Below are positions 5,245 through 64,000 of a stretch of 64,000 bases of DNA, one piece after another. The position numbers were made by a program, and so were the translations under genes. Positions within the stretch are counted from its first letter, which is position 1, and the number at the start of each line of letters is the position of its first letter. A model generated the notes under the pieces. It ran no database searches. It was not told where the DNA came from and saw nothing but the letters and a program-made list of their open reading frames with translations. Source of the stretch: Podarcis vaucheri (Eukaryota); assembly GCA_965113315.1 (NCBI GenBank), contig OZ220363.1; one strand, written 5' to 3'.

Positions 5245-5379
5245 AACGGCTCCTGGGCGGAACGTTCCGCGCAGCGCGCCGTGTTTGCGCCCGGACAGCT
5301 TTTCCTTTTCTCTCGCCGGCCTTTCCCCGAGGAGGCGGGAGCGTGTTGCCACGGAGACTCGTCCTTTTTTCCGGTTCGG

Positions 5380-5545
5380 AGGCGGATGTTTGTGAAAGGG
5401 GGGTTTGACAGGCGGGAGTGGCGGCTGCTGGCGAGCGGAGGAGCGCTCAGGGAGCGCGCAGCGCAGGAACTCCGTACTGGGCGCGCGTCGTCGGGGCTGC
5501 ATCTCTTCCCTTCCCCCCATCGCGCACACCTTCATGAGATAAACA
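5380..5545 (+). other. ARHGAP1: ARHGAP1 probable non-coding exon 1 (start approximate)
   Basis: Donor ACA|GTGAGT at 5546 inside the CpG island; the TSS cannot be determined from sequence alone. Confidence 0.55.
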
Positions 5546-19100: not shown

Positions 19101-20261
19101 CTTGGGGCCCTTGATATGCCTTGACAATTTTGGGGTTCTCTGGAGTCTAGAAGTATGAAAGTTCCTGGAATAGCTTGTGATGGGGGAGCATTGATTAGTA
19201 AATCTTTTGGTTTCCTTTCTTTGTTTGATTCTGCTTTAGGCTGAATAATTGGAAATGATTGTTAATACTTTTGAATTCAGTTACTTCAGTGTCTGATGAG
19301 CAATTATCATGCTGTACTCCAGTGATTGATTTGGGGAAAGCCTCTTAAGGCTTTCTGTGTTCTTGCAGCAGCATTTTTAAAACTGGGAGACTGCCATTGA
19401 GCATGCGTCTATGTGTTGTAGTGGGACTTTGGGACACTCTAGGTAAAGGATAGGGAACCTGTGGCCCTCTAAATGTTGCTGGTCTACATCACCCATCAGT
19501 CCTGGCCAGCATGGCCAATGGTCAGGGATGATTGGAGTTGCAGTCCCAACAACATCTGAAAGACCCAGGTACAGCATTGTTGCTCTAGGATCTGGCCTAG
19601 GGCTGTCCTTTTGCAATGTACATCCTTTTGCCTCAAATGGAGCATGCTTACTTTCCTGTAATCTACAGGAACTTCTCTTCCTGCTTCTGCCTGTGTATGT
19701 TTGCTGGCTTTTCAGAGGTATTGACCAAGTAATGAGGGATTTGATTTCCTGAATTATTGTTTTGTTTTTTTTAGTTCTGCCAAGCAAGAAGCAGTCCTTG
19801 ATCCCAGAAGTGTTAGGAACTGAAGTTGCTTCTTAAACTCCCCTGTGACTGGCTACTCTTGGGTCTCAAAACTTGTGTGAAAGAGGAGTGGAGCAGGTGG
19901 TGGATCTGAGTTCTTAAATCCTAGAGCATTCTATTTTCTGTATATCAGGACCAATATTAAGGACCTTGAAATGGACATGGGAACATTCAGTTTTGTAACT
20001 GAAAATGGGTTCACTGACTTTTCAGTATTAGCAATATCCTGTTGTTTAAATGTCTGGTAGTATGAAAAAGCTACTGTTTACCTTTTCATGCATACCTTGT
20101 ATGGGAAACCTGACATATAAAAAAGCAATAGTTCATCCAGATTGTAGCAGAGTCTAGAAAGGGAGGAGGGGGGAAAATCAACTTCTAGATTTATCTAGTT
20201 AACAACTAGTAATCATGTTTTTGAGCTCGTTGTAGTTTTGAGTGTATGCAACTCGTGTGTG

Positions 20262-20294
<33 letters not shown>

Positions 20295-29200: not shown

Positions 29201-29275
29201 TAAAGTTATTGTGACTTTTTATATTTATATTGGATTAGATTGTTATTGTTTGATGTTTCATTATGCTTTTATACC

Positions 29276-29315
<40 letters not shown>

Positions 29316-32300
29316 ATTATTATTATCAACATCATCATCATTATCCACTTTGCCTACTAGCTTACCTTTTGTTTCTGTAGAGGAGGCTGTAACAGGGAGG
29401 AGAACAGGGTGAGCAGAGAGGGAGTGGGGTGGCGAAGGGACACTGGGAGTCTGACTTGTCGGCACATACAGTATGATGTTGTGAGCTGCTGAGATGGCTC
29501 TCTCCTCTGCATGGCTTGCTCTTTATTGTCATGTGACCCTCAGAAGGTTTCCCAAGAGGGAGTGTGGCTTCGGGCTAAAAAAGGATCCTCGCAACTGATG
29601 TAGCAGAAGTAGCTTGTAAGTACTTCTTACAAGAAGTAGCTTGTAACTAGCGTAGTGCCAGGGCCTCTGGGCTTGTGTTTACAGGATAATGGGACACTGG
29701 ACACCAGCTTAGCACTTTTTGGTGTAGTTTAGAATGATTCCATACATACATGTTTGTGTCTGTCTCTCACTGTAGGTATGATGAATATCTGAGATCCCTG
29801 CAGAAGCCCTCCCAAGTGCCTCAGAAAGTAACCCCACCACGCCCACCTCTGCCAAACCAGCAGTTTGGAGTTTCTCTCCAGCAGTGAGTATCCTCATCTT
29901 TTTTCTTTTCTTGGTGGACCAGTGATACCTATAATCTATCTGTGGGTAGTTCTGGAAATGCTTTCCAATCATCTTGAATCGGCACCTGTGGTTAGCTTGA
30001 CTTTTGCCAGCCTTGAGTTTTCTAGATCAGGGCCAGTGATACACTGGATATTATGTCTGATTCAAAGATGTTTCTTTGGGGGAAGTGACAGGAAGAGTCT
30101 AAGCTTCTCCTTTCTCAACAGCTTACGGGAGAAGAGCTTGGATCAGAATCCCATTCCACTTGTGGTAAGGGAGACCATTGCCTATCTGCAGCAGCATGGT
30201 GAGTGAGCTAGGAAGACCCCTCTTCTGACTTGTCTTGTTGCTACATCCACTGTCCTTTGTCTCCCAACAGCACCCTTCTGTTGCATCAGCCTAGCCTTTT
30301 TAAGATGCCTTAGCACAGACTCATTCTTTTTCCACTGCCCATCTTACTATCTTTCTTGTCATTTGATTCTGGTCTTCAGAAAGACACAGCAAAATTGAAC
30401 ACTAGGGAGCTGAGGGATTCTACTAACCTAATTCCCCAAGTGCCTTCTGCATAGCTGTTCCCATGCAAGTGTCCCTGTGCATGTGGCTTTCAGGATGTCC
30501 TTGTCCTGTGATATTGGAAAGACTTGCTGTTATGTGTGGTAGGTCTTCCCTGAGACTGTGCTCTTCTGTTTCTCTTTGTCCCCAGCTCTTAACACAGAGG
30601 GGATTTTCCGACGATCAGCAAACACCCAGACAGTCAGAGAAGTTCAGCAGAAATATAATATGGGTAAGTGCCTGCATTAGGTTCCAGAAGTCTGCTTAAG
30701 CTACTCCACTGCCCCTTACCACCATTCTTTTTGTCTAGGCCCCAAATCTGCCCTTAGCACTTTGGACTTGTGCCCTCCCACAACATGCTTTAACTTCTGA
30801 ATAGATCTCTGTTTGAAACTTGGCTGGAATCCAAGGAGTTTATTCCTTTTGACATAAACCTATTCCAGTCTAAATCTATACCCCCTGGATAAAGGAGGTG
30901 CTTAACCTTCCACAGCAATTATGTTTGATCAATGTATAATGTGTTTCCTCTGTTTCATCCTCTGGGGTGTGTGTGTCTCCATTTCCCTAATATTTGCTGG
31001 AATCCTGTTGCTGGTATTTTTGAAGCAATTCTTCCAATGCTCCTAATGATTGCTGCTTTGGAGGAGGATTGAGTACCACTGATCCTTTTTTTTTTTTGAC
31101 AGTGTGTTTACCTGCTCCTGCCATGCTTCTGCCTCTAGTTCCCGGTCTTTGGATAAGTTCCTTATTCTGCCAGGTGGAGGGGGCTCAGCCCTGGTGCTCT
31201 AGTTATGGCTTTGAACCTATCCACTTTCTTACCAGGGCTGCCTGTGGACTTTGTGCAATATGAGGACGTGCACCTGCCAGCTGTGATTCTCAAGACCTTC
31301 TTGCGGGAGCTGCCTGAGCCTCTCCTCACCTATGGTCTCTACAATGACGTCGTCAATTTCTACAGTGAGTTGCTACCAAGAGTGTCCTGATCCCAAAGCA
31401 GAAAACTCCTCTAAATATGCTCTACCCAGAATTGTGCTGTACTCTCACAGCAGATTGGCTGTATTATGCTTTCCCAGGGCAGCATAGTAAAAGTCCTAAT
31501 TCTAGTACAGTCATACCTTGGAAGTTGAACGGAATCCATTCCAGAAGTCTGTTCAACTTCCAAGCTCCTGCAGCCAATTGGAAGCTGCGGAAGCCCCATC
31601 GGACGTTCGGGTTCCAAAGAACATTCACAAACCGGAACACTCGCTTCCGGGTTTGCGGCGTTCAGGAGTCAAAACGTTTGACTTGCAAGGCGTTTGGGAT
31701 CCAAGGTATGACTTTTTGAGGGCTTTTCATCTGCAATCCACCTCTCCACATGAAAGCTAGGACTTTGCTTGCTGGTATAAATGCCCCACTTGCTTTCCTT
31801 TCCAGGTGTAGAGGAAGAAAAGCGTGTAGATATTGTTCGCAAAACCCTCCAGAGTCTCCCGGAAGAAAATTACCAAGTTCTGTGTTCACTGATGTCCTTC
31901 CTTGTGCAGGTGAGCTGTCCCAAAGCATTTCTTTGCACAGCATGTATGCAGTATCTGAAATTTGCTGCCACAATATACGATGATAGGAATGGGCTTAAAT
32001 GGCTTTCAGGGTGAATTAGGCTTTTCTCTCTTGTGAATTTGCGAACTATAGTAACTAAATGGTGTGTGTGTGTGTTCAGAAGCAGAGTACATCTGGATAC
32101 TTGATGCTGGGGACAGCCAATGGGGTGGGGTTGTTGCTGTTACATCCTGCAAAAGGCTATGATTTACAACATCTGTTTTGCCATTTAAGTAATCTGTTAA
32201 TGCTTCTCTCTGAAAGCTTGAAGCCTAAATGATTAAAGGAGGAGTTGATGCAAAAGTAGGTTTTATTTCCATTAATCAATAGAAGAAAAGAGTTTCAGGC

Positions 32301-32691
32301 TAAAATTTCCAGCCAGTGAAGGAGCAAGAATTATTGCAGCCACATTTTAGTGTCTCGTCTGCAAGTTATCTCTTCATGCATGCTTTCCATTGGCTGTTCC
32401 TTTGTTTATAAGCTAGAGGCTTCTAGAGGCAGATGGTGAGGAACTAGGGAAGACAGAGTCAAAATATATTTGTCTCTAAATTGAAGTATTTTCTTCCTCC
32501 CTCCTATGTAGGTCTCTGCTAACAGCGACATCAACAAGATGACCAACACTAACCTGGCCGTCGTTTTTGGCCCAAACCTGCTGTGGGCCAAAGATGCAGC
32601 CATTACCCTCAAAGCCATTAATCCTATCAATACGTTCAGCAAATTCCTACTGGACAACCAGAGGGAGCTTTTCCAGAGCTTGGAGGCTTGA
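12970..32691 (+). CDS. ARHGAP1: Rho GTPase-activating protein 1 (p50RhoGAP/Cdc42GAP), 435 aa; join(12970..13102,13877..13969,26866..26953,27274..27405,27509..27595,28999..29097,29776..29883,30122..30198,30586..30663,31236..31364,31806..31909,32512..32691)
   Basis: 12 GT-AG exons sum to 1308 nt with an open frame; in-frame TAA just upstream of the ATG. Contains the BCH/Sec14 domain ([25 protein letters not shown]...[14 protein letters not shown]), Pro-rich PPRPPLP, and a RhoGAP domain with arginine finger [22 protein letters not shown] and [17 protein letters not shown]. Confidence 0.97.
13877..13969 (+). CDS. ARHGAP1: ARHGAP1 coding exon 2
   Basis: [31 protein letters not shown]. Confidence 0.95.
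15622..16790 (-). mobile_element. 5'-truncated L1-clade LINE (ORF2 C-terminus, 3'UTR, A-rich tail)
   Basis: Successive frameshifted ORFs 16521..16802, 16152..16502 and 15902..16171 with a Cys/His motif CWR...YHMWWEC and [10 protein letters not shown]; T-run at the left end. Confidence 0.82.
17699..17956 (+). mobile_element. Tigger/pogo-like MITE (CCGTATTTTT.GCTCTATAAGAC TIR)
   Basis: TA TSD; TIRs CCGTATTTTTTGCTCTATAAGAC / GTCTTATAGAGCAAAAAATACGG. Confidence 0.85.
20255..20294. repeat. (GT)n microsatellite
   Basis: About 20 GT units with one interruption. Confidence 0.95.
21245..21357. mobile_element. hAT-type MITE, same family as 9008
   Basis: Shared AAGAGGTGCCAGAACTCA core; perfect 8-bp TSD GTTCTCCA at 21237-21244 and 21358-21365. 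Confidence 0.7.
22115..22344 (+). mobile_element. Tc1/mariner-type MITE, 230 bp
   Basis: TA|CAGTGGTGCCCCGCAAGACGAA...TTCGTCTTGCGGGGCACCACTG|TA perfect TIRs. Confidence 0.9.
25578..25941 (-). mobile_element. Sauria (Squam1/POM-type) tRNA-derived SINE, full length
   Basis: A/B boxes, (ACCTTT)n tail, 13-bp TSD GCTCTTAGCCATA at 25565-25577 and 25942-25954. Confidence 0.9.
26866..26953 (+). CDS. ARHGAP1: ARHGAP1 coding exon 3
   Basis: [29 protein letters not shown]. Confidence 0.96.
27274..27405 (+). CDS. ARHGAP1: ARHGAP1 coding exon 4
   Basis: [43 protein letters not shown]. Confidence 0.96.
27509..27595 (+). CDS. ARHGAP1: ARHGAP1 coding exon 5
   Basis: [28 protein letters not shown]. Confidence 0.96.
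27738..27967 (+). mobile_element. Tc1/mariner-type MITE, 230 bp
   Basis: Same TIRs and TA TSD; about 6 substitutions versus the 22115 copy. Confidence 0.9.
28123..28148. repeat. (GA)13 microsatellite
   Basis: Seen directly. Confidence 0.95.
28999..29097 (+). CDS. ARHGAP1: ARHGAP1 coding exon 6
   Basis: [32 protein letters not shown]. Confidence 0.96.
29276..29342. repeat. Compound (TTG)n(TTA)n(TCA)n microsatellite
   Basis: Seen directly; explains the poly-N ORF 29235..29465. Confidence 0.95.
29776..29883 (+). CDS. ARHGAP1: ARHGAP1 coding exon 7
   Basis: [35 protein letters not shown]. Confidence 0.96.
30122..30198 (+). CDS. ARHGAP1: ARHGAP1 coding exon 8
   Basis: [25 protein letters not shown]. 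Confidence 0.95.
30586..30663 (+). CDS. ARHGAP1: ARHGAP1 coding exon 9 (arginine finger)
   Basis: [25 protein letters not shown]. Confidence 0.96.
31236..31364 (+). CDS. ARHGAP1: ARHGAP1 coding exon 10
   Basis: [42 protein letters not shown]. Confidence 0.96.
31508..31713. mobile_element. Tc1/mariner-type MITE (CAGTCATACCTTGG TIR)
   Basis: TA|CAGTCATACCTTGGA...TCCAAGGTATGACT; right terminal base and TA lost. Confidence 0.75.
31806..31909 (+). CDS. ARHGAP1: ARHGAP1 coding exon 11
   Basis: [34 protein letters not shown]. Confidence 0.96.
32512..32691 (+). CDS. ARHGAP1: ARHGAP1 last coding exon
   Basis: [59 protein letters not shown]; TGA at 32689-32691. Confidence 0.96.
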   Translation, partial: VSANSDINKMTNTNLAVVFGPNLLWAKDAAITLKAINPINTFSKFLLDNQRELFQSLEA

Positions 32692-44100: not shown

Positions 44101-47100
44101 TTGTCTCCCAGAGATCATGTGGGGACCCACTCTTTCCTTCACTGCTGTTAGATACAGTTTCTGTGTCCTCACTGAGAGAGAAAAGAGAAGGGGTATTAAT
44201 TGATTTCCTTTTGTTTTTCTTGCTCTGCACGAGCTCTGGAATGAAGCACTGGTACATGAGAGTGTATTATTTGTTTACCCATATGTGGTACTGCAGGTAC
44301 AAAAGGCAGTATACTACACACAAAGGACAATGCATAATGTGTAAAAAGTATCAGCAAAGTTCATGGTGAATCAGTAGTCATCCCAAATAAAACTGAAAAG
44401 GCCCTCTCCTGGGTACCCACTTGCTGTATTTCAGATAGTGGTGAAGGTGGTGGTCCCAAAGGAAGGTCTCCAAAGTGGAGTAGAAATCCTGGACAGACTC
44501 ATTTGCAGGCTGTGTGTGTCTTAACATATTGTGGTCCCAAGATTTTAAATATTGAAGCCAACACTTTGAATTGAGCCTGAGAACAAACTGGTAACCAGTG
44601 AAGTTGGTGGAGGATTTGCGTAATACAATTTGAACAGAACACTCCCAGCCACATTCTGGATAAAAGACTACAAAACTGTTCCCATAGAATATTTCACTAC
44701 TCTTTTCTCTTTCTTTGTGCAAAACAGAATTTTCCTTAATGGATTTTGTTTTCTTAATATTTTCATGGGTTTCTCCCCACTTCAAGTTGTGATTTGTATG
44801 TTGAATTAATATCCACACCATAAATGTCTTCAAAAGGCAATGTCATTCTAGGCCTCTGGAGGCTCCTGATCATATCCCTCATGGATGCAGGTACAGGTGT
44901 GGAGAGGGAGATTACAGCCATATGAACAGGGGCACTACCCAGAGATTATGGAATACACGTGAACAGGCCCTAGACCAAATAGTGCCCCCTACACCTGTTC
45001 AGCTTTTGAAAGCCCTATTTTTTATTGCATTTGTATCCCATTTCATGACTTTGAGGTGTAGTATGCATGGATGATTTATTCCTGTCAAATATGGTGATGA
45101 ATTGGCACATGTGGATCTGTCAATCTGTATATATTGATATCACACATAAACATAAAGGTAAAGGTAAAGGTACCCCTGCCCAAACGGGCCAGTCTTGCCA
45201 GACTCTGGGGTTTGTGCGCCCATCTCACATTTATTGGCCGGGGGCCAGCGCTGTCCGGAGACACTTCCGGGTCACGTGGCCAGCGTGACAACGCTGCTCT
45301 GGCGAGCCAGAGCCGCACACGGAACGCCGTTTACCTTCCCGCTGGTAAGCGGTACCTATTTATCTACTTGCCCCCGGGGGTGCTTTCGAACTGCTAGGTT
45401 GGCAGGCGCTGGGACCGAGCAGCGGGAGCGCACCCCGCCGCGGGGATTCGAACCGCCGACCTTTCGATCGGCAAGCCCTAGGCGCTGAGGCTTTAGCCCA
45501 CAGCGCCACCCGCGTCCCTAAACATAAAAAACACTAAATTGGCTTCTTCTAAGCTTGTGGGAGCTTCCTAACATTAATTGAAATGTACTAACATCAAGAA
45601 ATTGAACTGTACAGCAGTGCTGGCTGGAGCAGTATTAAATAGTGTTACAGCTTTACAAGTGAGGATGAAGTGTTTGCATGTTTATTTAAGTTTATTTAAG
45701 GGGACAGACAGTGGGCAATTTGAGACTAGCATCCCAGGCGCTTGTCTAAATTACATCCTCAGGAAAAATAGAAATGTTAAGTTTGCCAAAGCTACCAGTA
45801 TTAAACTGCAAATGTGAGTGTTGGTACTGTCCTCAACTCTAAAGGGCAAGGTTTGTGCTTAACCCTAACAGAAGCTCAGCAGGAATTGGTGTTTGAGGTA
45901 TTCTTGTTAGAAGCTACAATTATGCTTTAGTACCTGCATTCAGTCATTTTACAGAAATGAAACCAAAACTACTTTATTATTACTAATGAAGAGTCTAGTA
46001 TGTGGAACTAATGAAATGTCACAAGGTGGAAATAGTGGCATTAAAAGTAGCTGGATCAGACAGATGTAGATCTTACCAAGAGTACAGCTCCAGTTCTTAC
46101 ATTTTTAGCTGCTACTGAAATTTGTAAAGTTTCCAAAGTCCAAAACAATGCTGAACTTTAGGTGCTGATCCATCAAGAATAGTGAAAGTTACTGTAATTA
46201 CTGAATACTAAATAACTGAACTAAATAATGTTGATGTTATGTGTGTAGATGCATTTTACTATGAAAACATTCTATCAAACAGCTGTTGGATTTGGAAAAT
46301 TACTGTCCTATCTTCCTACAGGGCTGTAGTTACTGCAAATGTAGGAGAACCCTACTTACACATGCTTTCTCTGCACTTTCACTTTGGGGGGAAAGAAAGG
46401 GAGGAAAAAGAATCTGAATTAGGGAAAGTTAAAATCCTCTAATGATCTTCCTAACTGCCTCTTTCCAGAAAGCTGCTTATAGCCTAGCAAATGAATTATT
46501 ATTTTTAAAACCTGTAGTAAGACTATGAATCACCACGAAGAGATGGAAAACTTACCTGCTAGCTGGAGTAACTGCAGAGTAGTGACCCCCATCCAAAGGG
46601 GTGCATGTTGCCATTCTCTCATGATCAGCCTGAGTGCCATGAACTGGTTGGCTAGGAATCAAGGGCACTCCTCCATCCTTCCCTGGAACCATCAACTGGA
46701 GGAGAAAGGGATAAGAAAATTAGATATTTTAGTATTCATTTAAAAAAGCTCTAGGCTCTTTTATTTTCAAGTGTATGGTTGCCTGACTCTCAATGATAGG
46801 TAGCTGACAGCTGGTTACATGTTATACTCATGATATGAGAAACAGCCTGGTTCTGCCTGAAGGCTTCCTACCAACAGGTAAAGAGAGCTGGAGAGGATCT
46901 CAGTCACTTACAATGAAGTTAAGACAGGGAGCACCAGAAGAAATTATCAACTAAGGAGAGTGATAACCAGACATGACAAAGAAAGCTGGGCATTGGCCCC
47001 CCATTCCCAGCACTTGACTATGATATCTTCCAGTTTTCTTTGCTTTATGGCAGAAAGCCTTCAAATTTCTTAACAGGCAAAGCAAGGCTGCTTCTCATGT

Positions 47101-50100
47101 TGCTCAGCTCTGACTGTACCCTACAAGTAAAATAATGGGGTAAGAATGGATAGAGAAATATGTCAACAGTTAAGGAACAGAGTTAGCTATGAGACATATA
47201 AAATGGTCTCAAACCTCTAAGAATACCTGGTGAGGATGTGCAGCACTCAAGCCGCCAGCAAAGACTACTGGGTAGGCCAGGTCAGCTGATCCAACTCCCA
47301 GGGCTGTAGGCTGATAAGAAAGACGAGAGCTGGAGAGCTAAGAAATGAGAGGGGGAAAGGGAAAGGGAGAGAAAGGGAAAACCCCACACAGTCTGAATAA
47401 TTTTCAGAATTACTGGAAAAGGCCAGGAAAAGAAATCAGATTTGCAGAATAAAATACTAGGCTGGAACTGAGGTAGTCTGAGCCACATGCACACACAAAA
47501 CCAAACCAATCCTAGACATCTTTACTTAAAAGAAAAAGTTGCCACTGATTTCAATGGAACTTATTTTCAAGTTGTGTTTAGGATTACCAGGGACCACTCT
47601 CAAGCCTGGATTTTGCTTTAAAATGATGCACAACACCTACAAATGATGGAGATGGCATTCATATAGGACTGAGAGGATAGTATGAAGTGTGTTGACCAAT
47701 AACATGCTGGACAAGAGAGCAATTACTTAAAAGCTGTGTTTATTATTTGTTTTCTATGAGGGTTTTTTAAAATGACTGTTCTGTGTTTTATTGAAATGTT
47801 TTATATATTATTGTTATATGCTACTTCAACTTCCTATTGATTTTCACTGCCTTTATTAAATAAATGCTACAGAAGAAGCCTGGAAAACCACTGCTCTGAC
47901 AGCAGACTCTAACTGTGGATATAGGTTCATTGTCAAACAAATCATGTGACCAACTGCATGCCTCTCTTTGACTCCCACACCAAGAAGGGCAAAGCCCGAA
48001 CATAAAGCCTCACATTCTGCATCTCAGTTATAGAGGCAAAAGTTTCCAGAGCAGTCATTTTATAGTCCTCAATGTGAAAGTCCACCTCATAGCCCAAACC
48101 TTCCTCTGCTTAATATTTTAAAAATCTTTAAATTGTATATATAACCTAATAAACAATATCATTAAAACAAGAATACTACATCAAACCCTTAAAAGAACAG
48201 TTGTGTAAAAGCATATAAAACAAATGAAAACAGGATTTCAGGGAATTCAAACAAATAAAAACAGGACTGTTTTCAAAATGACTCAGGTAACATTAAAAAA
48301 TAGAATCTATTGGTATCACACCCCCAAAGCACAGTCTGAAACAGCTACAGAAAAACATTGGACAACAAAATACAGTGGTGCCCCGCAAGACGAATGCCTC
48401 GCAAGACGGAAAACTCGCTAGACGAAAGAGTTTTCCGTTTTGGAGGTGCTTCGCAAAACGAATCTCTTATGGGCTTGCTTCGCAAGATGAAAATGTCTTG
48501 CGAGTTCCTGCGGGTTTTTCCCCTCCCCCCCCTTTTTCTAAGCCGCTAAGCCGCTTATCAGATGATCTGATAAGCTGATAAGCCGCTAAAAGCCGTTAAT
48601 AGCGCTAATCCTCTAATCCGTCAATGGGCTTGCTTCGCAAGACGAAAAAACTGCTAGATGAAGAGAATCACAGAACGGATTCTTTTCGTCTTGCGAGGCA
48701 CCACTGTATTAAATTCCTCACTGGGCTATCGGAAAGCTCTGGAAAAGAAACAGAAGAAATGCCTATGTGGAATACTGGGCTCACAGTAATTAATTAATGT
48801 GCTCCAAAAGCCAATGTCTAAGGCCAACTGTAACAAAATTAATCCACTAGAATAAAATTGACTCCTGAGGTACAATAACTGCTTCAGCCCTTTATAATGG
48901 TGACAATAAACTTTTAATTTCTTCAGAGGTGAAAAATACTGTTTATTTCCTGTCCCCTGGTCAACTCAAGAAAACACACAGCAATTTCCAGAAAACTCTA
49001 TTCCACAAAGCGATCAGTATTCTACGATTGCTCTATAAAGTTTGCCCTGTGGCCTAAACTACATATTTTCATTGCTTCTTTGCAAATTTCCTGTTCAGCA
49101 ATAAAGACAATAAATTTATAACTTCAGAGATGTTTGATTCATTTTCTTTTCTAAAAGCTAGTCAGTAAGTGAACAGATTTTGCAAACCTCTAAGCACATT
49201 AAACTCAAATGCATGTTTCATTTTAGGCTAACCAGCCTAAAGAGCCAAATCAAAGGGAAATTATTTACTAGTTAGTGAAAAAATACTTTTGTCATGCACC
49301 TTCTTTATTTTAAAGGTGATGTCAGGCCAAACATATTTTTTTCTACTATGAACTCACTTGATGTGAAAAGGTCAGCCCCATCAAAGGGCCCTTCAATGTA
49401 TCCGTCACGACAGGAGGAGGGGTCTGAAAATGTGCTTTAGTGACAGTAAATACACACTGAACACAGACACACAAAAGGAAAAGAAAGAAAAAGACTTCAG
49501 AAAGAAAAACTGAAAAGAGTTGGATGAAGTGAATGTTGGTGAGGACTGTGGCTACAGCTATGAGAAACATTCATACATGTCAAAGAGTTGCAGAATTGCA
49601 GGGGAGCTGCATGCTTTATAAAGGGTTTAAAATGTCAGGAAACTGTTGTCCGCTTTTTAAAAAAAGTGTTCCTAGTTGTAGTCTTTATCAATGAATTCAC
49701 TGCTGATCATATATAACCAACTGCCTGAAACTCTCTTCTAAAGTCAGATGTTGTAGGACTTTTATTGATCATCTTAACAACTAGGCTTGAATAGCTGTTG
49801 GTGACAACTGAGCAAAGGGGGAGCTATATAAAGTGGAGATCACTCTAAGTCCTCATGCATCTCAGTGATCAAAGCAATCTCCAGTTGCACTAGGCTTGAA
49901 GGTTCAATACAAACAGTAAGACAATAGGCTTTGTCAAACACTGTTTTTTTAAAAAAAGATACCTCACCCTGTTACAGAGCAGCTGAACACAACCCCGAGC
50001 AAGAACAGTGAAAAAGCCTTGAGCCACAAACTCATCAGCTGTGCTGGCTGTCAAAGTCAGAAGCCATGTGTCTTCAGACTAGAGTTTGATTGAGACAACT

Positions 50101-53100: not shown

Positions 53101-56100
53101 AGTAAGGGAATATCCTAATTCCCCCTACATCCAAAATCCTTCATTTTATTCTTATATTCTCCCTGACTGTTATGTTACTGGTATATAGTAGTTGTTTTTT
53201 TTAAGTCTTCAGCTAGTTTGTTCATTGCCAAACCATACCTTCTCCCAAGCCACTCAGCTGAACTTCTCCGAAGTATATCCTATGAGAGAGAGAGAGTGCA
53301 TTAAACATAGTCTACTAGGTAGTATAAAGTCAGGTGCACTAAGTGTTTATCATTGAGCTGTGTCTTCTGATTTACAAAGTACTTTACAAGATTAAGATTC
53401 TTTACCCATACAATATTTATCTGAGTATTATTGCCTTTTACTCATGAGTAACTGGGACTGAAAGACAGCAGTTTGCCCAATGCTATCATCCAGTAAATTC
53501 ATGGCTGAGCTGGAAATCTGAACCCACAGCTGATATGCTATTCACTGGTCAGCAGATGAACCAGAAATATCATTGTAAGACCCAATTCAGGCTTGCCTTT
53601 TCTATTTAAAAAGGATCCCCCCTCACCCGCCAAATCTTTAGCAGTCCGAAAACTTTCTACCAGACATGTTCTAAGACAAAGATGGGAGAAAAAAGTTATG
53701 TTTTAACTAAGGATCCTTTTAAAGGAAACAACTGAGGAAGCAAGCTGGCTTTTAAAGGGAAAGATATTCTAAGAATATGGAGAAGCTAAAGAAAAATAAT
53801 GAAGCGTTGATCAAGAATTGCAAAATACCATAGGAAAAAATGAGTGGGAAAAGTGCATAAGAGCCAATCGTTCTATTGTTTCTATTTCAATATTTATTAC
53901 CTGTACAATATTACATATTCATGACCTTGTTTCCTAGAGAGTCTGTAGGCAGGAGTCACCCTTGTTATAGCAAGTAAAGACTTCAGTAATAGAGACAGTC
54001 TGTTGTACACAGTGTAAGAAACTTTGATTTCTTTATCACACCTAAAAAGCACACAGAAAGAGTTAGTCCGACATTCTCAATGAAGTGACACAAAGTACAC
54101 TAATACAAGCTAGAGACAGTGACATTTGGGGTCTACACTAGATTTAGCCATGTAAAATAGAAGCAATTGAGATTACAACCTGCCCTTAGAAACACAATCT
54201 ATTCATATACCTTATGCAATTTGTTCCCAAAAAATATTTATCGAATTGCAAAAAAGTATTTGCAGAAGTTACAAATAATCTTGTACTAGAATTAATTACT
54301 GTAAGTTTTTGAGCATTTTTTAGCTTATTTTATTATATAGCTTGTAGATACCTATATAATTATCTTGCATAATTCTTATTTGTAATCAATTAGAAATCCT
54401 TGTACTTCAGCACAAGATACACATGACTTTAAATACTGAGCAGGTATGTTCTGTGAAAAAGACACTTGAATTTCTCAGCTAACAGATACCAAGAGTTCTC
54501 TCTTACTTGAATGATAAATGTGATAAAATCTTAAGTCCCTTTGCAATTTTTCTAGTCTAGGAGACAAGTAAAAGCTACGAAGCAGCAGATGGTTGTGGCT
54601 AATTATGTTTGCCTAATGCAGAATTTAAAAAAAATCAGAACTAAACTGCTGACTCACTGTAGATAATTTAACTCCAGTGTCTTCTACAACACTGTTAAAT
54701 CAAAACAGGCCATTTATATCATGGGTCAATAGGAGGATTTATTTTAGAGCTTTCTGCCATCTAATAATAACTGCCCTTTTAGATACAGGGTGGATTGATT
54801 TAAATCAGTCATTTAAAATCACCAACAACCAAAACAACCAGCAGAAAATAACCTAATTTAACTCAACTTTCCTATTTTGTAATTCATGCATTTCCTAAAC
54901 CTGAGTGCACACGACGAAGTGGTTGCTATTACCATTTAACCATATTGGCTTGCAACTATAGTCACTGAAGATAATCCAAACCCCACATGGTTTTAGCTCT
55001 ACCCTGTTATATCTGCTTCTAGGCAAGTGGGGAAACTGTGAACATGACTAAGAACATAAAAAGAGTCCTGCTGGATCAGACCAAATAACTATTTAGTTGA
55101 GTATTCTGTTTCCCACAGTGGCCAACCAAATGCATATGGGAAGCCCACAAACAGAACATGAGTGCAACAGCCCTCTCCCATTGTTGTTTCCCAGCAACTA
55201 GTATTCAGATGAAGTCCTGTGCCCTTATGCACTCAGTCAGCCAAGAAGTATCTGCTTATTGGACAAGTATCAGCAACACACACTTACTTTTCATTCATTT
55301 CCAAACACCAAATTTCCAACTCCATGGAATCCCCCTGCAGTGGAAAAAGGAATGTTTAAATAACATCTTTGTGAGATGCTCAATGAATGGGAAAAACCTG
55401 CAAAATAAGTTTATCATCATATGAATAATCATTTTAGATCTTACTGTGGTCCCTTTGGAAGTTGAATGGAGACACAAAATTCAAAATACTACATGTAATA
55501 ATGAATTTGTAGCTATGGTTTGCTCCTTCTGATTCATAAGATTAAAGATTTGCATATATAAACAGGAGCACCCTTTCCCCCTTGTGAGATGCACTCAGCT
55601 TCCTTTTGACTTCAAATGACAAATATACCATATTTTTCGCTCTATAAGATGCACCAGACCACAAGACGCACCTAGTTTTTGGAGGAGGAAAACAAGAAAA
55701 AAAATATTCTGAATCTGCGCAGTGAAAGCAGCAATCCCTCTTGCTGTTCTGGCTTCTGTGATAGCTGCGCAGCCTGCATTTGCTCCATAAGATGCACACA
55801 CATTTCCCCTTACTTTTTAGGAGGGAAAAAGTGAGTCCTATAGAGCAAAAAATACGGTACCTACAAATGGCCTCAACAGTTTGGCCCCATCCCACATGCT
55901 TCTGGTGGGCTGTTGGTTTGTTGAAAGCAGCTTGTTTGCTTGTTTAAAGCTCACCCCTATACGTGGTAACCATCATACAGTTCATTTTTTATTTTTCTAA
56001 TGATGATTATTTTAAAAACAGATACTGTATTTAGGCTGAAAAACTATTTTGGATAGTTAGGGTGCCTCTACACAACCCTCTATAAAGAATGTGACAACAA

Positions 56101-57998
56101 CATAGTAACTGCAGTTTATGACCTAGGGTGGCTCTTTTTTATGTATAGTCTCTCCTTAACAGTGTCAGTAGTGTTGTGTTAAAAAATGCTTGCAATAGAT
56201 ATCATTTGCATAGTATGAAGACATTGCTGACATGAGCCTTAAACCATGAAGATGGCAAAAGTGTAGTTTTGCTTAGGCTTTACCTCAGAGGTTTTGAGAG
56301 AGATTTCCACACACATTGACCGTCCAACAGCAGGCAGCTGTCCTGCCAAGGCTTTTTTTGCTTCATGGGTAACTTCTGGGATATCTTTGATTGCCAAGTT
56401 GAACTGCAAAATTAAGAGAGTTGATTTTACTTTTGAGGAACTTATTTGAGAAATCTACCATGTGTCACACAACAGGAATGTATGCATTGGAACTTACAAC
56501 TTATTGTATTTACTCAAATGTAATGCACACCTTTTTTTGCCAAATTTCATCACAAAAATTAGTGTGTGCAGTAGATTTGATGGCGCATTTACATTCGCAA
56601 GGAAATACTTTTTTGGTTTCCAGGTTTTGAAATTTGAGGTACACATTAGATTCATGTAAAGACGACAACAGGACAAAATATTCTCTGCTGTCACACACTG
56701 ATGATTACTAATAACAGTCTTGCTTTACTTTACTTTTTTTTTGTAAAGCAGATAATACCATCACAAAAATTTCCCAGCTCCTTCCTTGTTCTCTCTATTT
56801 ACAGTTCCTCTCTTGAGAGCTTTTATCAGAGCCACAGATGAAAAGCAATTAAGAGAAATCCACCCAGAATCAGCTGAGGTAGAAACTGTTCAGACATATA
56901 TATTATTTGTATACCCAGTACCACAAGATGCCCAAATAGTAGTTTTATGTGGTTAAAAAGAAAAGGAATACTGTTTAAACATTTTTGCATGGTTCTATGC
57001 TTGCAGTTCTGCTTCAGTCTTTTGTTTCCTGTATCTTAACATGGCACAAGTATGGGAATAATGGGATTCCTATGAGGAATATAGTTTACCCAGTCAGAGC
57101 CTGTTGGCGAGGATGATGATCGAGTACAGATTTTTTCACCAAGTCGGGCCTGGACAATCACTTGTACAGTCTGAAAGAGAAAATATGAGATTTGTGAGAA
57201 GTCAAGATTTGTTACTAAACAGGAGAGAGATGAGATGAAACACAGAAACAAAAGTAACTGCTTTCACTACTTCAGTGTTTTTGTTGGTCTTCCATTATTT
57301 TATCGTTCCCCTCTTGCTGTTGAGATCATTCACCTCTCTTGTTAGTAAAACCATACATTTCTCCTTTAATCTGTACACACGCTTTCCCAGCTTGCTCTGC
57401 AACATCTATACTAATCTCAGTTAATCAGCACAGGACAATCAATGGGTGCTATAGGATGCTGTCTATAAGCAAGACTTTGATATCTAGATACCTCCCTTCC
57501 CTAACCTGGCATCTTTCATATGTTTAGACTCAAGCTCCCAGCAACCCTGGCCACTGTGTGGCTTCCTGCTTTGTCTACCTGGAATGCCAATTCCAAACTC
57601 CCTTTCCTTGACTCTTAAGCATGTGTGATTCAGTCCCAAGGTCTGCAGATGGGTCACCTGACAGTCAAATAGGAGCTTGTCATATTCAAAAGCTTGATGA
57701 CTATGGGGCTTTGTTTTGTTTTGATACTATAATCTATATTTTTTGAAATCCAAATGAAGTCAGAGATCAGCAAAAAATGTTGTTTTAAAAGGTTTTGACA
57801 TTGCATCAATCAACATTATGGCTCGGCAGCATGGGGCACTGTAATAAGTACAGGGAGTTTTGGTTTGTCACAGTGCAACAGGAATGTGGATTATTTTTTT
57901 TACTTCTATTCCAAAAAACAATAAATTACCTTCAGGGCAAAAAATTTGATGAACTTGTCCAGGTCCTTCCTGTCCTGGGAGCTGAGATCAGTGTCCAT
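41109..57998 (-). CDS. ATG13: Autophagy-related protein 13, 550 aa with all exons; complement join(57930..57998,57090..57170,56284..56403,55288..55334,53901..54041,53239..53279,52736..52832,52347..52445,51031..51118,49358..49456,47227..47337,46556..46695,44054..44171,43659..43736,43363..43479,42459..42587,41109..41186)
   Basis: 17 GT-AG exons sum to 1653 nt in one frame. N-terminal HORMA domain ([36 protein letters not shown]...), LIR motif DDFVMV and C-terminal [10 protein letters not shown] are near-identical to human ATG13. Confidence 0.97.
41256..41378. mobile_element. Fold-back hAT-type MITE in the last ATG13 intron
   Basis: Same family as 35838; 8-bp TSD ATACACAG / AGACACAG. Confidence 0.72.
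42459..42587 (-). CDS. ATG13: ATG13 coding exon 16
   Basis: [43 protein letters not shown]. Confidence 0.96.
43363..43479 (-). CDS. ATG13: ATG13 coding exon 15 (LIR motif)
   Basis: [39 protein letters not shown]. Confidence 0.96.
43659..43736 (-). CDS. ATG13: ATG13 coding exon 14
   Basis: [26 protein letters not shown]. Confidence 0.95.
44054..44171 (-). CDS. ATG13: ATG13 coding exon 13
   Basis: [39 protein letters not shown]. Confidence 0.96.
45157..45518 (-). mobile_element. Sauria (Squam1/POM-type) SINE, full length
   Basis: About 10 substitutions versus the 25578 copy; 10-bp TSD TAAACATAAA at 45147-45156 and 45519-45528. Confidence 0.9.
46556..46695 (-). CDS. ATG13: ATG13 coding exon 12
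   Basis: [46 protein letters not shown]. Confidence 0.95.
47227..47337 (-). CDS. ATG13: ATG13 exon, 111 nt (alternatively skipped in human)
   Basis: [37 protein letters not shown]; phase 0-0. Confidence 0.94.
48373..48706 (+). mobile_element. Tc1/mariner-type MITE, longer variant
   Basis: Same TIR family, TA TSD, internal TAAGCCGC repeats. Confidence 0.88.
49358..49456 (-). CDS. ATG13: ATG13 alternative (cassette) exon, 99 nt
   Basis: [33 protein letters not shown]; phase 0-0, long polypyrimidine tract, CAA|GTGAGT donor; resembles the 33-aa insert of the long human isoform. Confidence 0.85.
51031..51118 (-). CDS. ATG13: ATG13 coding exon 9
   Basis: [29 protein letters not shown]. Confidence 0.95.
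51417..51506. mobile_element. 90-bp hAT-type MITE
   Basis: TIRs CATAGCTGTCAAC.TTTCCC / GGGAAATGTTGACAGCTATG; 8-bp TSD CTGTAGAA / CTGTAGAG. Confidence 0.8.
52347..52445 (-). CDS. ATG13: ATG13 coding exon 8
   Basis: [32 protein letters not shown]. Confidence 0.96.
52736..52832 (-). CDS. ATG13: ATG13 coding exon 7
   Basis: [31 protein letters not shown]. Confidence 0.96.
53239..53279 (-). CDS. ATG13: ATG13 coding exon 6
   Basis: [13 protein letters not shown]. Confidence 0.95.
53901..54041 (-). CDS. ATG13: ATG13 coding exon 5
   Basis: [46 protein letters not shown]. Confidence 0.96.
55288..55334 (-). CDS. ATG13: ATG13 coding exon 4
   Basis: [15 protein letters not shown]. Confidence 0.96.
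55628..55857 (+). mobile_element. Tigger/pogo-like MITE, same family as 17699, with internal deletion
   Basis: TA TSD, matching TIRs and body. Confidence 0.85.
56284..56403 (-). CDS. ATG13: ATG13 coding exon 3
   Basis: [40 protein letters not shown]. Confidence 0.96.
56504..56665. mobile_element. Old Tigger/pogo-like MITE
   Basis: Degenerate TIRs TGTATTTACTCAAATGTAATGCACACC / GGTACACATTAGATTCATGTAAAGACG. Confidence 0.55.
57090..57170 (-). CDS. ATG13: ATG13 coding exon 2
   Basis: [27 protein letters not shown]. Confidence 0.96.
57930..57998 (-). CDS. ATG13: ATG13 coding exon 1 (exon starts 58011)
   Basis: [23 protein letters not shown]. Confidence 0.96.
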
Positions 57999-60900
57999 TT
58001 CATATGGAAATCTAGAATAGAACAGGCATAAATATTCCAATTTGTTACTAACAGGAGAGAGAGCTTACTATATTATTTAAACTAATCAAAGTTAATGAAC
58101 TTCAGGAAACTACAGTAATCTTAAAGAGACATAAAACTAATCTTAACCTTGCTGAGATAAATTTGTGTGATTTACATTAATACACTACTAGCTACGAAGA
58201 GAATATGCACCAGTGAAAAGTTTATGTGCATTTTCAGAATCAGCTCAGTTGTTATGGGAACTGGAGCAGGAAAAGATCACATTTCATTTAAGCTGCTGAA
58301 CTTGCTAGAACTAAGTGCCAAATGAGTTTGGTCATTATATGCATTTAAAGAAACTCTAGCATATTTGTACAAAGCAACAAGAGTCTACACATGGAAGTCA
58401 TTCTTTCACATAAAAATTGACCTATGTAGGCAGCATAGCAATATTGGCAGGTGACTGAGCCCCTGATGGCAGTATAGCTGATGATATTTTTATTAAGTCA
58501 TCCAATTGTGTTGCTGGAGTGGAGATGTGGGCAGAGCTGGCATTTGTCATGTCACAGCCCTACTGTAGCTATGTGCTAAATAAAAATAACAAGTCATACT
58601 TATGAGCAGGTGCTAGTCTGTCAAAGTTCATGCCATAATAAATGTCCTCAAGATACCACCAGACACTCCCCACCATCCCATAATGCTTCACAGGAACATT
58701 CCTTGCAACAATATAATGTTAAAATGCAATGGACTCAGCACTGGGCAAAAGTGCAGAGTATACCTGAACAATACTGTCTCTTTCACTAAACAGGTGTGAT
58801 ATTTGATAAACTATTTCATTTCTTGATAAATGAACAATGATACCTACCTAGTTATCATGAAACTGTGACAGATAAAATGCAATGTAGAACAAAAAGGGCT
58901 AACAGATTTTACCTAAGCTGTGGTTAGGAAAATTTGCATGTTTGCTTGTTGAAAATAAAGTTATATATATCAGAATTTGACCAATATATGGATCATGAGC
59001 TGGATACAGACTAAGTCGTGCTTGAGAAGACCCACTAAAATCAATGGAACACAAATTGACTAACTTGTCCCGTGAATTTGAGGGGATCATGCTAAACATC
59101 ACACACTATTTTCCTCAGTGATCTACCAATGTTACTGAACACAGCTGGAGCCTGAATGTCAGAATATTTATTTTTAGCCCAGAGGATAACCAACATTATC
59201 TAAAAGGTGAGATTTTTGTACCTATGAGCCAGTCAGGTCAGGGAACTATTGGGTTCTATGCTTCAGAAAGCCATATTTTTTTGCAACTGACACCCCCATC
59301 ACCACATGAAAACCAATACACATAAACTGTAACACTTATCAAAAATTTCATTTTTGAAGTTTTGAAGAAAAACTTCCATTATATAATGGAAATCTAACAC
59401 AAATTCACATATGTGACACACCTTCTTTGTGATGGTCCATTGTATATTTCAGACATGCTTGCGCTTTACTGCATGGTGGTAATTTCCACAGGACCAATCC
59501 TACTCTAAACCCTTGTTGCTTTTAGTGCCTCTTTCCTGAGTAACTATAATACACAGCATATCTAAAGCAAAATATTTCTATTTCTGTTGTTGTTGTTATT
59601 TATATAACACTTTTCAGGTGATTCTCACGAAGTGGTTTACAAAAAAAAATTAAATTAATAAGTGATAATTAAAACTGTGTAATAAAGCAGCCAAAAACAA
59701 ATTACAATGACTCCCCCCCCCCCCAAAAGCTAGATATCGACTTCTCTCAGGTCAAAACTGTTTTTTAATAACACTGTGGTGGCAGGTTTCTTTTTACAGG
59801 GTAAGGAAACAGCTTTCTTTGCTCTCTATTCTGGCAGACACATTTAAAACAAAGGGTGTTAAGAAATGAGTAACCTCAACCCATATAGTATTTCAATGAG
59901 AAGACAGGATGGACAATTATACTGTTTAAGTCTCTCAGTGCAGTGATTCTAGAACCTTCACAAGGTACTAGAATATCAGAGATACTTCATGATTCTCAGG
60001 TTACAGATCATTCGCTTTGGGATGAACTGTAGCTCAGTAGTAAGGCATTAACTTTGGAGACAGAAAGTTCCAGGTTTAATCACCAGTTAAAAGTACTTCG
60101 GTAACAGGAAGATGTGAAAAACTTTGGATCAACAACTTTGAAAGCTACTGCCATTCAAAATATCCAATACTGGGCTAGATGCACTCAGTATAAGACAGTT
60201 TTCTATTTCACAAGGCTTTCCAATTAACAGCAGCATTGCTTTCTCTAGTGCAAACTCCTTAAAAGCAGGAAAACATTTTAAAAGATCCCAATAAAAAAAT
60301 TCAAATAAAAGCCAAACACTTCTGGGTGACACACAAAGCATTTATGAACCTGCTCCTCCTTTGCCTGTTTACCATGTTTTGAGAGTAGGGAGCAGTTGTC
60401 TTGGCAACATTTGCATCACAATCTCCTAAGAGGAACAAGAAACACTAGATAGAGCTCCAACTTAGGGGTTGAGTCTTTCAGGAGAAATAATTATCCTTGA
60501 ATTCAAGTCCAGGCAGATCTAATGTATGCCACATCACCATTAGTCTTTCTTGGACCCAGAGAACTGAGTGTAATGTTAAAGTTAAGAAATTTTAGCCTGC
60601 TCAGTACCTGGAAAGGAGAGTTTGTGGGAATCCACTGTAAGTTACTGATTTCCTGAATTAAAAAACAACAGCTACATGTAATAATAATTATAAATTATTT
60701 AACAACATTAGAAGAAAACTGACTATATAATATTTTGGGCCAGTAAGAATATGTTGCAGTATGGAGTGCTTCTGTATAGTGCTCCAGTAAGCCAAGCCTT
60801 CCTTCCTTACACTCCTGGCGTCACCCACCTCAGTCAATGTACTCAGCCTTCAATAGGCTGTTTTGACTCCCCTGCCTCAACCTAAAGATTTTTAGTACTT

Positions 60901-62195
60901 TTGCAAGCTGGGATACCCAGAAGCCTGCTGATATCTCTCTCTTGTGCATGCATGGTAATGTTTTGATTACATAAACACTGGCCCTTGGATAATTGAATTT
61001 GCTCTTAGTACAGATTCTATGATAGAAAGCATATGTCTATAAACTTGACAAGCCGGATCTCATTTTGTTCTGGAATGAAAATTAATTCTGTTACATCATG
61101 AACATATATTTCTAAATTTGGAGAAAATACTAAATATGATGTCCTAAAGACCTATGGTTCCCTTATCCCCATTTATTCTGTTTCCTAAAATAGTGAGACA
61201 GCTTACAAGAATTCCCCATTTTGTACCTCCTGAGGGCTGCTTCCAGCGTGTCTAGTATAATATGTGTACCTACAACACTGCCCACTATGTGCAAGAACCA
61301 TTTAATTCTGTTTGATTTGTGTGCTCTCTACAGATGTCATCAAAAGCCACGGCTGGCTCTGGGGTCCCTCAGTGAATGCAGCATACATGAAAATCAACTA
61401 GAGCAGACATAAAATTCTAACACTTTACAAGGAACCCTATTGGCAGATATAGCACACAGAGGCATATGCCTTAATTCCTGTAAATATGAAGCAGCCCAAT
61501 TTTAGGTTTTGTGGTAGATTTTCTTCTTGATAGGAACCAAACTATGATTATCAACTTTTTTATTCTTGTTGTTACAACAAACTGGAAGGCAGCAAACATT
61601 GATTAGTCCCTAAGTTAATATAAATTCTAGGGGAAAAGAAATGAAGAAATGTAATTTTAAGGCAAATAAAAACATGTTTCTAAAATGCCTTTTCGCTTTT
61701 ATTGAAATACAAAAAAGCCAGTGATTCTAACTAAACTATTATTTGTTTATGTGAATGGCCTAGTTTTTCCATTACGCAATAGGTATATTAAAGATCCAGA
61801 GCCACATTCCAATGCAGAGTTAGGCACACCAAGACTGAAATACTAAACATATTAACTAGAGAGAAAGTCCCACTCCTCGTAGCAGAATTGCACTGTTTTG
61901 GTTAAGATTTCAGTGAACTTAAGCATACTTGAATTTGTGTTGAATTGTGGCCCAAGAGTTTGAAAATCCTCACATTATTTCAGTCACATTTTTGCCTGAA
62001 AGATTTAGAAATATCTCTAGATCAAAAGTCCATGAGGTCAGATCACATGATGAAGACAAAGTATGCAGCATAAAGACTGGCAGCTTGATCCTCAAAGGAA
62101 CACATGATGTAGAACTAGTTAGTGAAAATAGGTCCTGTGTTGCTGGAATCCTTTGAAGACTGTTGCTTTAAAGCAGCTTAATCAGTTATCATATA

Positions 62196-62540
62196 GGGAC
62201 GCGGGTGGCGCTGTGGGTAAAAGCCTCAGCGCCTAGGGCTTGCCGATCGAAAGGTCGGCGGTTCGAATCCCCGCGGCGGGGTGCGCTCCCGTTGCTCGGT
62301 CCCAGCGCCTGCCAACCTAGCAGTTCGAAAGCACCCCCGGGTGCAAGTAGATAAATAGGTACCGCTTACCAGCGGGAAGGTAAACGGCGTTCCGTGTGCT
62401 GCGCTCGCCAGATGCAGCTTTGTCACGTGACCCGGAAGAGTCTCCGGACAGCGCTGGCCCCCGGCCTATAGATGTGAGATGGGCGCACAAACCCCAGAGT
62501 CTGTCAAGACTGGCCCGTTCGGGCAGGGGTACCTTTACCT
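62196..62540 (+). mobile_element. Sauria (Squam1/POM-type) SINE, full length, different internal variant
   Basis: A box TGGCGCTGTGG at 62206-62216, B box GGTTCGAATCC at 62260-62270, ACCTTT tail, 14-bp TSD TTAATCAGTTATCA at 62178-62191 and 62541-62554. Confidence 0.9.
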
Positions 62541-62939
62541 TTAATCAGTTATCAACAGCAGATCTGAAACAACTTCAGTCAACAAAACTCCCTTTTGGCA
62601 AGGTCATGAAATAAGTTACAGATATATTCAAGCTCCCACATCACACATGCTAAGAAATTTAGTGGTGCAGTTGGGTTTAAACCCAAGGTCATGCACGTGC
62701 CACGTCATACGTTGACTACATCACATCCTCAAGGAGGTTTTATTTTCAGTACTCCTTAGGTTCTGAAAGGTTTGTCTAGAAATAAACAGTCATCACAGCC
62801 CTATTTTCCCTACTACCCACAACTCTATACAATCAGACTGTGATCCGCTGCTCTCCCCACCCCTACCTACTCTGTGGGAGAAGACCCATCACCCTACTCC
62901 AGCAGAAGCCTAGTCGAAACCCATCAAATTATGTGCATC

Positions 62940-64000
62940 TGAGGTGCAGGGGGGAATTACCTGCGGGGAGAAGGCTGAGGTGACGGCTCGGGGTCTCATT
63001 CCGGGGACGAGCCCGGAGGCTATCTTAGTCCCTCCTCATGGTCAGACCCAGTGGGCCTCTCCGAAATCCTCGCGGCTGGTTTCGACTCGAAGGGCTGGAA
63101 GGGGCCGCCCTCGCCGCCTCCTGTGGCTTCTTTCCTTGGAGAGGAGACGTGGCAGTGAACGTCCTTTGCTGGGTCACCTCAGGAACCCCAATGGGGGCTC
63201 GCAGCACCAAGACCCCTCCGGCCCCGCAGACTTGAGGGCCGCCCGCCTCTCGTTTCCCTTCTTCCTGGCGCCCCTTTCGCGCTCGGCTCCGCTGCCCAAT
63301 TCCCGCGCGGGACAAGGCTTTCCTCAGCCCCCGTCTGGGAATATGGCGGGGGTGGGGGGTGCGCGTAGATTCGTAGCCCAAGCCTGCGGGAAAACAGCGC
63401 CTGCTGGGGAGAAGGCCTGTTGAGACCTTTGGCCCCGAGGCGGGTGACCAATATCCGGCCTCCACTCGCCGCTGCCCAGTGCTTGGTCCAGCCCAGGGAA
63501 GGGGTTGGGAATGCCCGAGGCTGGCTGGCCCGCGTACGAGTGGAGTCTCCGCTTGCGCCGCCCCTTCGAGGAAGGCTCTGAGGAACCGGCGCCGGCCTTC
63601 GAGGAGAAGTCGCTTAGCCTGTCAGCCCTACGAGCCGACCTGCCCGTCGTCGCAGGTTACACATCCAGGGTGTCCCTCACGGCCGCAGACTCCCCCTGCA
63701 GCCGCCGCCGCCACCGCCGCCATTGCTGCTGTTTGTTTTCATCCGCTCAGGGCGAGCGGAGAGCGCTGACTCCGCATCCGCCGCGGCACTTTCCACAGAG
63801 ACGAGGACCCGCCTCCCGTTATCAGCGACACCCCCCCACCCGCCCCAGTGGGCCAGCCCGCAGCCGTTAAGTATCGGCGGGAGGCGGGAATGCCCACCTG
63901 GGAGGCTTAAAGGGGTGAAGGGCCGGTCTCGTGAGGAATCTGCGACTGGGAATGAACAGGCCGGGCGTCGTGAGAGGGACTTGGAGCTCCGCCTCGGGAT
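62940..64000. promoter_or_regulatory. CpG island, ATG13 promoter (probably bidirectional with HARBI1 beyond the window)
   Basis: High GC/CpG; CCAAT at 63296 and 63448; E2F-like GGCGGGAA near 63883; forkhead-like TGTTTGTTTT at 63730-63739. HARBI1 is inferred only from human synteny. Confidence 0.8.
62961..63770 (-). other. ATG13: ATG13 probable non-coding exon 1 (5' end approximate)
   Basis: Donor CGCAG|GTAATT at 62960 at the edge of the CpG island; minus-strand YY1-type AATGGCGGC at 63724-63716, typical just downstream of a TSS. Confidence 0.55.

Follow-up and report, generated by a model that had tools for sequence, protein, structure and literature searches.

The 64,000-nt stretch of Podarcis vaucheri DNA analysed here, referred to as the window, carries the core autophagy gene ATG13 on its minus strand, with the start codon at 57998. 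The identity of the gene was settled by a solved-structure search, in which the exon at 53900–54076 matched solved ATG13 chains at E 9e-26 and positions 57932–57998 matched ATG13 residues 1–22; two of eight exon frames were matched by Pfam, below cut-off. Convergent with ATG13 lies a plus-strand RhoGAP gene at about 13870–32688, for which three of four exon frames match PF00620 and which is, by synteny, presumably ARHGAP1. The head-to-head, divergent neighbour of ATG13 is presumably HARBI1. A CpG island at the upper end of the window is predicted to hold the ATG13 promoter and a non-coding exon 1, and a second CpG island occupies 5001–6000.

57930–57998, minus strand: first coding exon of ATG13, with the ATG at 57998
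62955–62963, minus strand: putative 5' splice donor of the non-coding ATG13 exon 1, CAG/GTAATT, with the GT at 62960 (approximate matrix)
62900–64000, no strand: CpG island, inferred ATG13 promoter and exon 1, GC 0.66, o/e 0.79, continuing past the end of the window

Upstream of the first coding exon, in DNA that is plausibly the first intron, lies a SINE containing the 10-bp palindrome with which this analysis is concerned.

62196–62543, plus strand: young, full-length Squam1/Sauria SINE in antisense orientation to ATG13, with (ACCTTT)2 at its end; 33 CpG, none decayed
62178–62191, plus strand: left TSD, 14 bp, T-initial; 4 extra nt precede the SINE head
62541–62554, plus strand: right TSD, overlapping the final tail bases
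62206–62216, plus strand: Pol III A box, the same in all three window copies
62260–62270, plus strand: Pol III B box, the same in all three window copies
62403–62405, plus strand: second deletion junction, in the neighbouring hairpin, with 4 nt lost at a 3-nt GCT microhomology
62422–62431, no strand: GTCACGTGAC palindrome, CLEAR consensus and USF-type E-box, at a 9-nt deletion between two CACG repeats
62432–62438, plus strand: ETS-like CCGGAAG, followed by A here and by T in the sister copies

Squam1/Sauria SINEs are described as having a tRNA-type head with A and B boxes, a length of about 350–360 nt and an (ACCTTT)n tail (PMC10670947, PMC10058329, PMC13295347), a 3' end shared with the Bov-B LINE (PMC13295347), and an insertion signature made up of a T-initial TSD and a thymine run about 10 nt upstream. 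The element at 62196–62543 is 348 nt long with two (ACCTTT) tail units, and its 14-bp TSD begins with TT and has TTT 8–10 nt upstream. Its head boxes, length, tail, T-initial TSD and upstream thymine run together fit membership of the Squam1/Sauria family. By-eye comparison with supplement sequences allowed its body to be aligned to published lacertid Squam1 copies and revealed the same young lineage marks as in P. muralis supplement fragments, and its translation matched Podarcis gene models containing SINE pieces. ARAGORN found no intact tRNA, and a scan of bacterial and archaeal genomes for stray lizard SINE DNA returned 0 loci. The SINE origin and youth proposed in the first-pass annotation are borne out by these family features, by the intact TSD and by the absence of decay at all 33 CpG dinucleotides; the intact TSD is not peculiar to this copy, since all three copies in the window have one (14, 10 and 13 bp). 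The UniRef P. muralis proteins P0004, P0005, P0007, P0008, P0009 and P0011 contain translated antisense Squam1 at one end, and are probably gene-model artefacts or cases of rare exonisation.

The motif had been placed about 530 bp into ATG13 intron 1 and next to the CpG island. The distance stands, at 529 bp between the 10-mer and the donor at 62960, which is the top-scoring minus-strand donor within 57900–64000 (5.4, with the runner-up at 5.3); this donor was placed with an approximate matrix, and a position within intron 1 is plausible. The island does begin about 0.5 kb away, but about 350 bp of CpG-poor DNA intervene (62544–62900; o/e 0.26, 4 CpG). CACGTG is absent from the visible part of the island, so that the SINE site would not be redundant there. 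Mouse Atg13 has been reported as a Zfat target, and the Zfat consensus GAA(T/A)(C/G)TGC has two matches in the island, at 63786–63793 (minus strand) and 63936–63943 (plus strand); as start-site markers these are only suggestive, since the 14 matches in the window compare with 11 expected, i.e., chance frequency. On the minus strand the antisense SINE itself contains donor-like sites at 62538 (AAG/GTAAAG, 4.1) and 62369 (CTG/GTAAGC, 5.1), which lie downstream of the inferred exon-1 donor (5.4) and could alter splicing of the ATG13 5' UTR.

Two further copies of the family in the window permit the history of the palindrome to be reconstructed.

45159–45518, minus strand: undeleted sister SINE in an internal ATG13 intron, with the 19-mer at 45271–45289 carrying GGCCACGTGACC and CCGGAAGT; 10-bp TSD
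25582–25940, minus strand: undeleted sister SINE, intronic to the plus-strand RhoGAP gene, with the 19-mer at 25694–25712; 13-bp TSD

The two sister copies are 97.5% identical to each other and 92–93% identical to the copy at 62196–62543, and the 19-mer was found in both of them exactly where the first reading had put it. In the copy at 45159–45518, removal of 9 nt yields the 10-mer by five equivalent placements, which amounts to a 4-nt microhomology; the copy at 25582–25940 has TGTG as its second repeat, through a CpG transition. A second deletion in the ATG13-proximal copy lies about 20 nt upstream of the first. Both deletions were scored against the nearest relatives of this copy, a P. muralis chr3 fragment and P0004, and neither the 4-nt nor the 9-nt microhomology deletion occurs in any other Squam1/Sauria copy examined. 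It is assigned to a source lineage other than that of its two sisters because it keeps the state of published copies at several of the positions where they differ.

The proposal that the 9-nt loss is a derived microhomology deletion is upheld by every copy that could be scored, young or old. Undeleted young-type copies comprise both sisters in the window, 3/3 P. muralis supplement fragments and the one protein fragment spanning the site (P0004), and undeleted old-type copies comprise 13/13 rows, 3/3 supplement fragments and 6 protein fragments. With the deletion in 0/6 other young-type copies, the 95% upper bound on its frequency is 39%. These samples are small, and the 13 old-type rows are biased, having been picked by similarity to an undeleted query; in one of the supplements each record covers about 400 characters, and the comparison with supplement sequences was visual, not made with an alignment tool. 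Exact-word searches found 0 occurrences of GTCACGTGAC in both supplements searched, a method that overlooks deleted copies carrying further changes. Protein searches with the SINE reading frames detected SINE pieces in 1/2, 11/192 and 0/88 candidates, and none of these 12 proteins shows the deletion: seven are undeleted across the site (six old-type, one young-type), one is too diverged, three stop short of it, and P0011, which starts exactly at the deletion edge with residues identical to those of the copy at 62196–62543, cannot be scored. Four matches of the representative search were dropped, one having weak repeat-like SINE alignments and three having none.

The parent of the palindrome is an inverted repeat, GTCACG-CTGGCCA-CGTGAC, with a 7-nt loop, and folds as a 6-bp stem. 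Because the arms of the hairpin are inverted repeats, any collapse through CACG inevitably leaves a perfect palindrome. The 10-mer is one of 16 possible products of 3–15 nt deletions with at least 4 nt of microhomology over the whole element, and with only 16 such products its recurrence would be expected among tens of thousands of copies. Within the window GTCACGTGAC at 62422–62431 is, as had been claimed, the sole exact copy; it arose in 0/100 shuffles, and Markov models expect 0.006–0.008 per window. These whole-window statistics were set aside as the wrong null, since the parent repeat already holds 8 of the 10 motif bases in place. In old-type sequences the stem reads GTCATG...CATGAC in 12/13 rows, compared to GTCACG...CGTGAC in young copies, and this one compensatory pair suggests that the E-box arose as a side effect of an RNA stem. 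Folding energies in the region are no better than those of shuffled sequences (z 0.25, -0.69 and -0.39; isolated hairpin, z -0.31), so that any structural importance depends on that single pair.

The contribution of the deletion to factor binding can be gauged from what the undeleted copies already possess. The palindrome is the preferred site of MiT/TFE factors, which also bind the M-box (PMC9363479), and an M-box core, TCATGTG, is present on the other strand in 12/13 of the old-type rows. Both undeleted window copies carry GGCCACGTGACC, which contains CACGTG and the half-site TCACG, a partial CLEAR motif listed for many TFEB targets (PMC8301958). The same sequence is the USF site of the adenovirus major late promoter (PMC10570711), an exact match that is coincidental and implies no descent. 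Judged from these copies, the E-box is pre-existing and the deletion is an upgrade of one flank toward the preferred MiT/TFE consensus. The ETS-like word noted beside the motif is present as described, yet it is family-wide, reading CCGGAAGA in the copy at 62196–62543 and CCGGAAGT in both sisters, and the former is the poorer match to the ETS consensus. In the sister 19-mers (45271–45289 and 25694–25712) and in the supplements, the compensatory stem pair turns the M-box into a full E-box, and on this comparison young Squam1 is a family-wide source of USF/MiT-type sites. The old-type motif may correspond to the IgH muE3 site, and TFEB was reportedly cloned on the adenovirus site; neither point was used as evidence. 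In literature listings that lack most subscription papers, nothing surfaced that links Sauria SINEs to an E-box or CLEAR motif, and a full-text literature search with words from the SINE sequence gave no match.

The position of the SINE is unexceptional for its family. Lacertid genomes hold 65,094–130,894 Squam1 copies (PMC10670947, Table 1), or one copy per 12–21 kb, and the 64-kb window has 3. Assuming uniform placement, 13–23% of genes would have a copy within 1.5 kb of their start, the lower figure being computed with genome size taken as 1.4 Gb and with the copy density of the window; at one copy per 12–21 kb, promoter proximity is therefore ordinary and an insertion near ATG13 is expected. 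CLEAR elements are described at up to 200 bp from the transcription start, and the TFEBexplorer scan range is given as -2000 to +500. The distance from any start down to the motif exceeds 529 bp, and would be 1.3–1.6 kb for a start in the upper part of the island; the motif is, given the inferred donor on which these distances depend, outside the described CLEAR promoter zone.

CpG content was also considered as a proxy for methylation and was rejected as uninformative, decay being found at 0/33 sites in this copy and at 1 and 2 sites in its sisters (Fisher p 0.55). Copies remote from promoters retain their CpG equally well, and the retention is best read as showing youth, not hypomethylation. 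Flanking DNA outside the SINE is depleted of CpG (o/e 0.16 and 0.26), consistent with germline methylation there; bHLH factors mostly prefer unmethylated E-boxes, with some methylation-tolerant binding by USF1/2. The suggestion that ATG13 had gained a "new" TFEB input is the part of the first-pass annotation that draws no support from anything examined here, since undeleted copies already have an E-box and TCACG, proximity to a gene is ordinary and the site falls outside the CLEAR zone.

The reading that we prefer, with a probability of about 0.78, is that slippage made a CLEAR word in a SINE that happens to lie near ATG13, without material effect on the gene; the motif is real, and probably a passenger of the transposon proto-motif kind. 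Young lacertid Squam1 carries the hairpin, the 3' arm of which is already a full E-box, and once 9 nt are lost between the two CACG repeats, the arms join to form the palindrome. Template slippage during the RNA or reverse-transcription step is the most likely cause of the loss, whether in this insertion or in the copy from which it derives, as suggested by a second microhomology deletion next door and by the absence of CpG decay, which leaves little time after insertion. The signature at its ends indicates that the copy entered the likely ATG13 first intron by target-primed reverse transcription, which in Squam1 is attributed to Bov-B in the literature. The site would then probably be methylated, or bound without consequence, with ATG13 driven from its own CpG island 0.5–1.6 kb away.

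As to when the deletion arose, by rough judgement an origin in the source copy is the leading option while falling short of an even chance, an origin during this insertion is only a little less plausible, and an origin after insertion is the least favoured. Inheritance from an active source copy would imply a minor subfamily that spreads the perfect 10-mer. Two deletions and further substitutions without CpG decay would suit accumulation in a source lineage, the Pol III boxes are intact, and some other traits recur in P. muralis (in DNA, an additional T within AGATGCAGC; in protein, the residues VTKLHLAS of P0011). Against such a subfamily, the 9-nt deletion is absent from all six other young-type copies, GTCACGTGAC does not occur in the two supplements searched, and the 4-nt deletion is likewise missing from the closest relatives. 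Moreover, the deletion removes the hairpin, which is present in 12/13 old-type rows and retained by compensatory change in young ones, so that the deleted RNA may mobilise poorly. An assembly or sequencing artefact at the hairpin is scarcely credible: both deletions do fall in hairpin-forming repeats, but the microhomology junctions are clean, the TSD is perfect, the window contains no N, and the rest of the copy shows no error-like noise.

Two alternatives to the passenger reading would give the site a function. The deletion may have produced a functional CLEAR element, through which TFEB/TFE3 would be recruited and starvation-inducible transcription added to ATG13 in this lineage; we regard this as very improbable. 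The exact consensus about 0.5 kb from a CpG island speaks for it, the 33 intact CpG would fit protection near the island (p 0.55), and maturation of SINE motifs is favoured beside existing regulatory sites (PMC8240256). Against this stand the position beyond both the 200-bp zone and the TFEBexplorer limit of +500, the single site, the ETS neighbour degraded relative to the sisters, and the chance expectation for proximity to ATG13; in two reviews ATG13 figures only as a target of phosphorylation or miRNA, and mouse Atg13 is reported to be a Zfat target. It is somewhat easier to imagine, though still unlikely, an open site bordering the island that is bound constitutively by USF1/2, and sometimes by MiT/TFE, and that nudges basal transcription of ATG13 or of its divergent neighbour, in which case the undeleted form would act much alike. 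The parent is the original USF site and USFs are ubiquitous (PMC10570711), USF1/2 are partly methylation-tolerant, and no CpG has decayed in the copy; but the CpG-depleted stretch of about 350 bp separates the site from the island, and CpG retention is equal in copies far from promoters. The most far-reaching scenario joins these elements, with an M-box converted by compensatory change into a USF/MiT E-box plus ETS site, a CLEAR-perfected deletion derivative acting as an active source that seeds TFEB-responsive sites genome-wide, and an ATG13 copy that is unmethylated, working and polymorphic across species or alleles, which would amount to a natural experiment on rewired control of autophagy; as a whole we consider it a long shot.

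The nearest known counterpart of the proposed passenger motif is mouse RSINE1 (PMC8240256), in which imperfect E-boxes are dispersed by a SINE, individual copies attain the canonical motif, and proximity to existing regulatory DNA matters. In RSINE1, maturation proceeds after insertion by point mutation, mostly CpG deamination, whereas the ATG13 SINE has a deletion at one locus; RSINE1 is backed by ChIP-seq enrichment and reporters, whereas the ATG13 SINE is known from its sequence; and only a minority of RSINE1 copies became enhancers. By this analogy, hairpin collapse is a modest variant of the maturation seen in RSINE1. Like the CLEAR elements of MiT/TFE targets (PMC10626434, PMC11864625, PMC6614182), the site has the exact 10-bp consensus near an autophagy gene; unlike those known elements, it is single, lies beyond the start-proximal zone and is situated in a young repeat. 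If functional, it would represent a SINE motif matured by hairpin collapse instead of point mutation, and a reptile case in which a young insertion links a central gene of autophagy with the MiT/TFE network. That link is testable, since 19,914–31,580 Squam1 insertions differ between two Podarcis species (PMC10670947). The more durable point is that young lacertid Squam1 copies hold a ready-made USF/MiT E-box beside an ETS site; irrespective of any effect of the deletion, the number of such sites may run to tens of thousands, and on present evidence the ATG13 site is one draw from that pool.

Several other features of the window were recorded. Between the SINE and the island, a CpG cluster at 62685–62715 in otherwise CpG-poor DNA includes a second E-box, GCACGTGC (core at 62694), followed directly at 62700 by CCACGTCA, a CRE/UPRE-like word. 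The cluster has no repeat match within the window and, as a candidate native element of the intron, may be preferable to the SINE site. Rfam returned one chance match on 61500–64000 (E 0.45). Elsewhere, four related elements at 22113–22348, 27736–27969, 48371–48708 and 2533–2833 have terminal inverted repeats, are flanked by TA and are MITE-like and, by appearance, of the Tc1/mariner type, the first two being 97% identical. Another short element with terminal inverted repeats is present in two copies, at 17694–17959 and 55623–55860, which are 85% identical.
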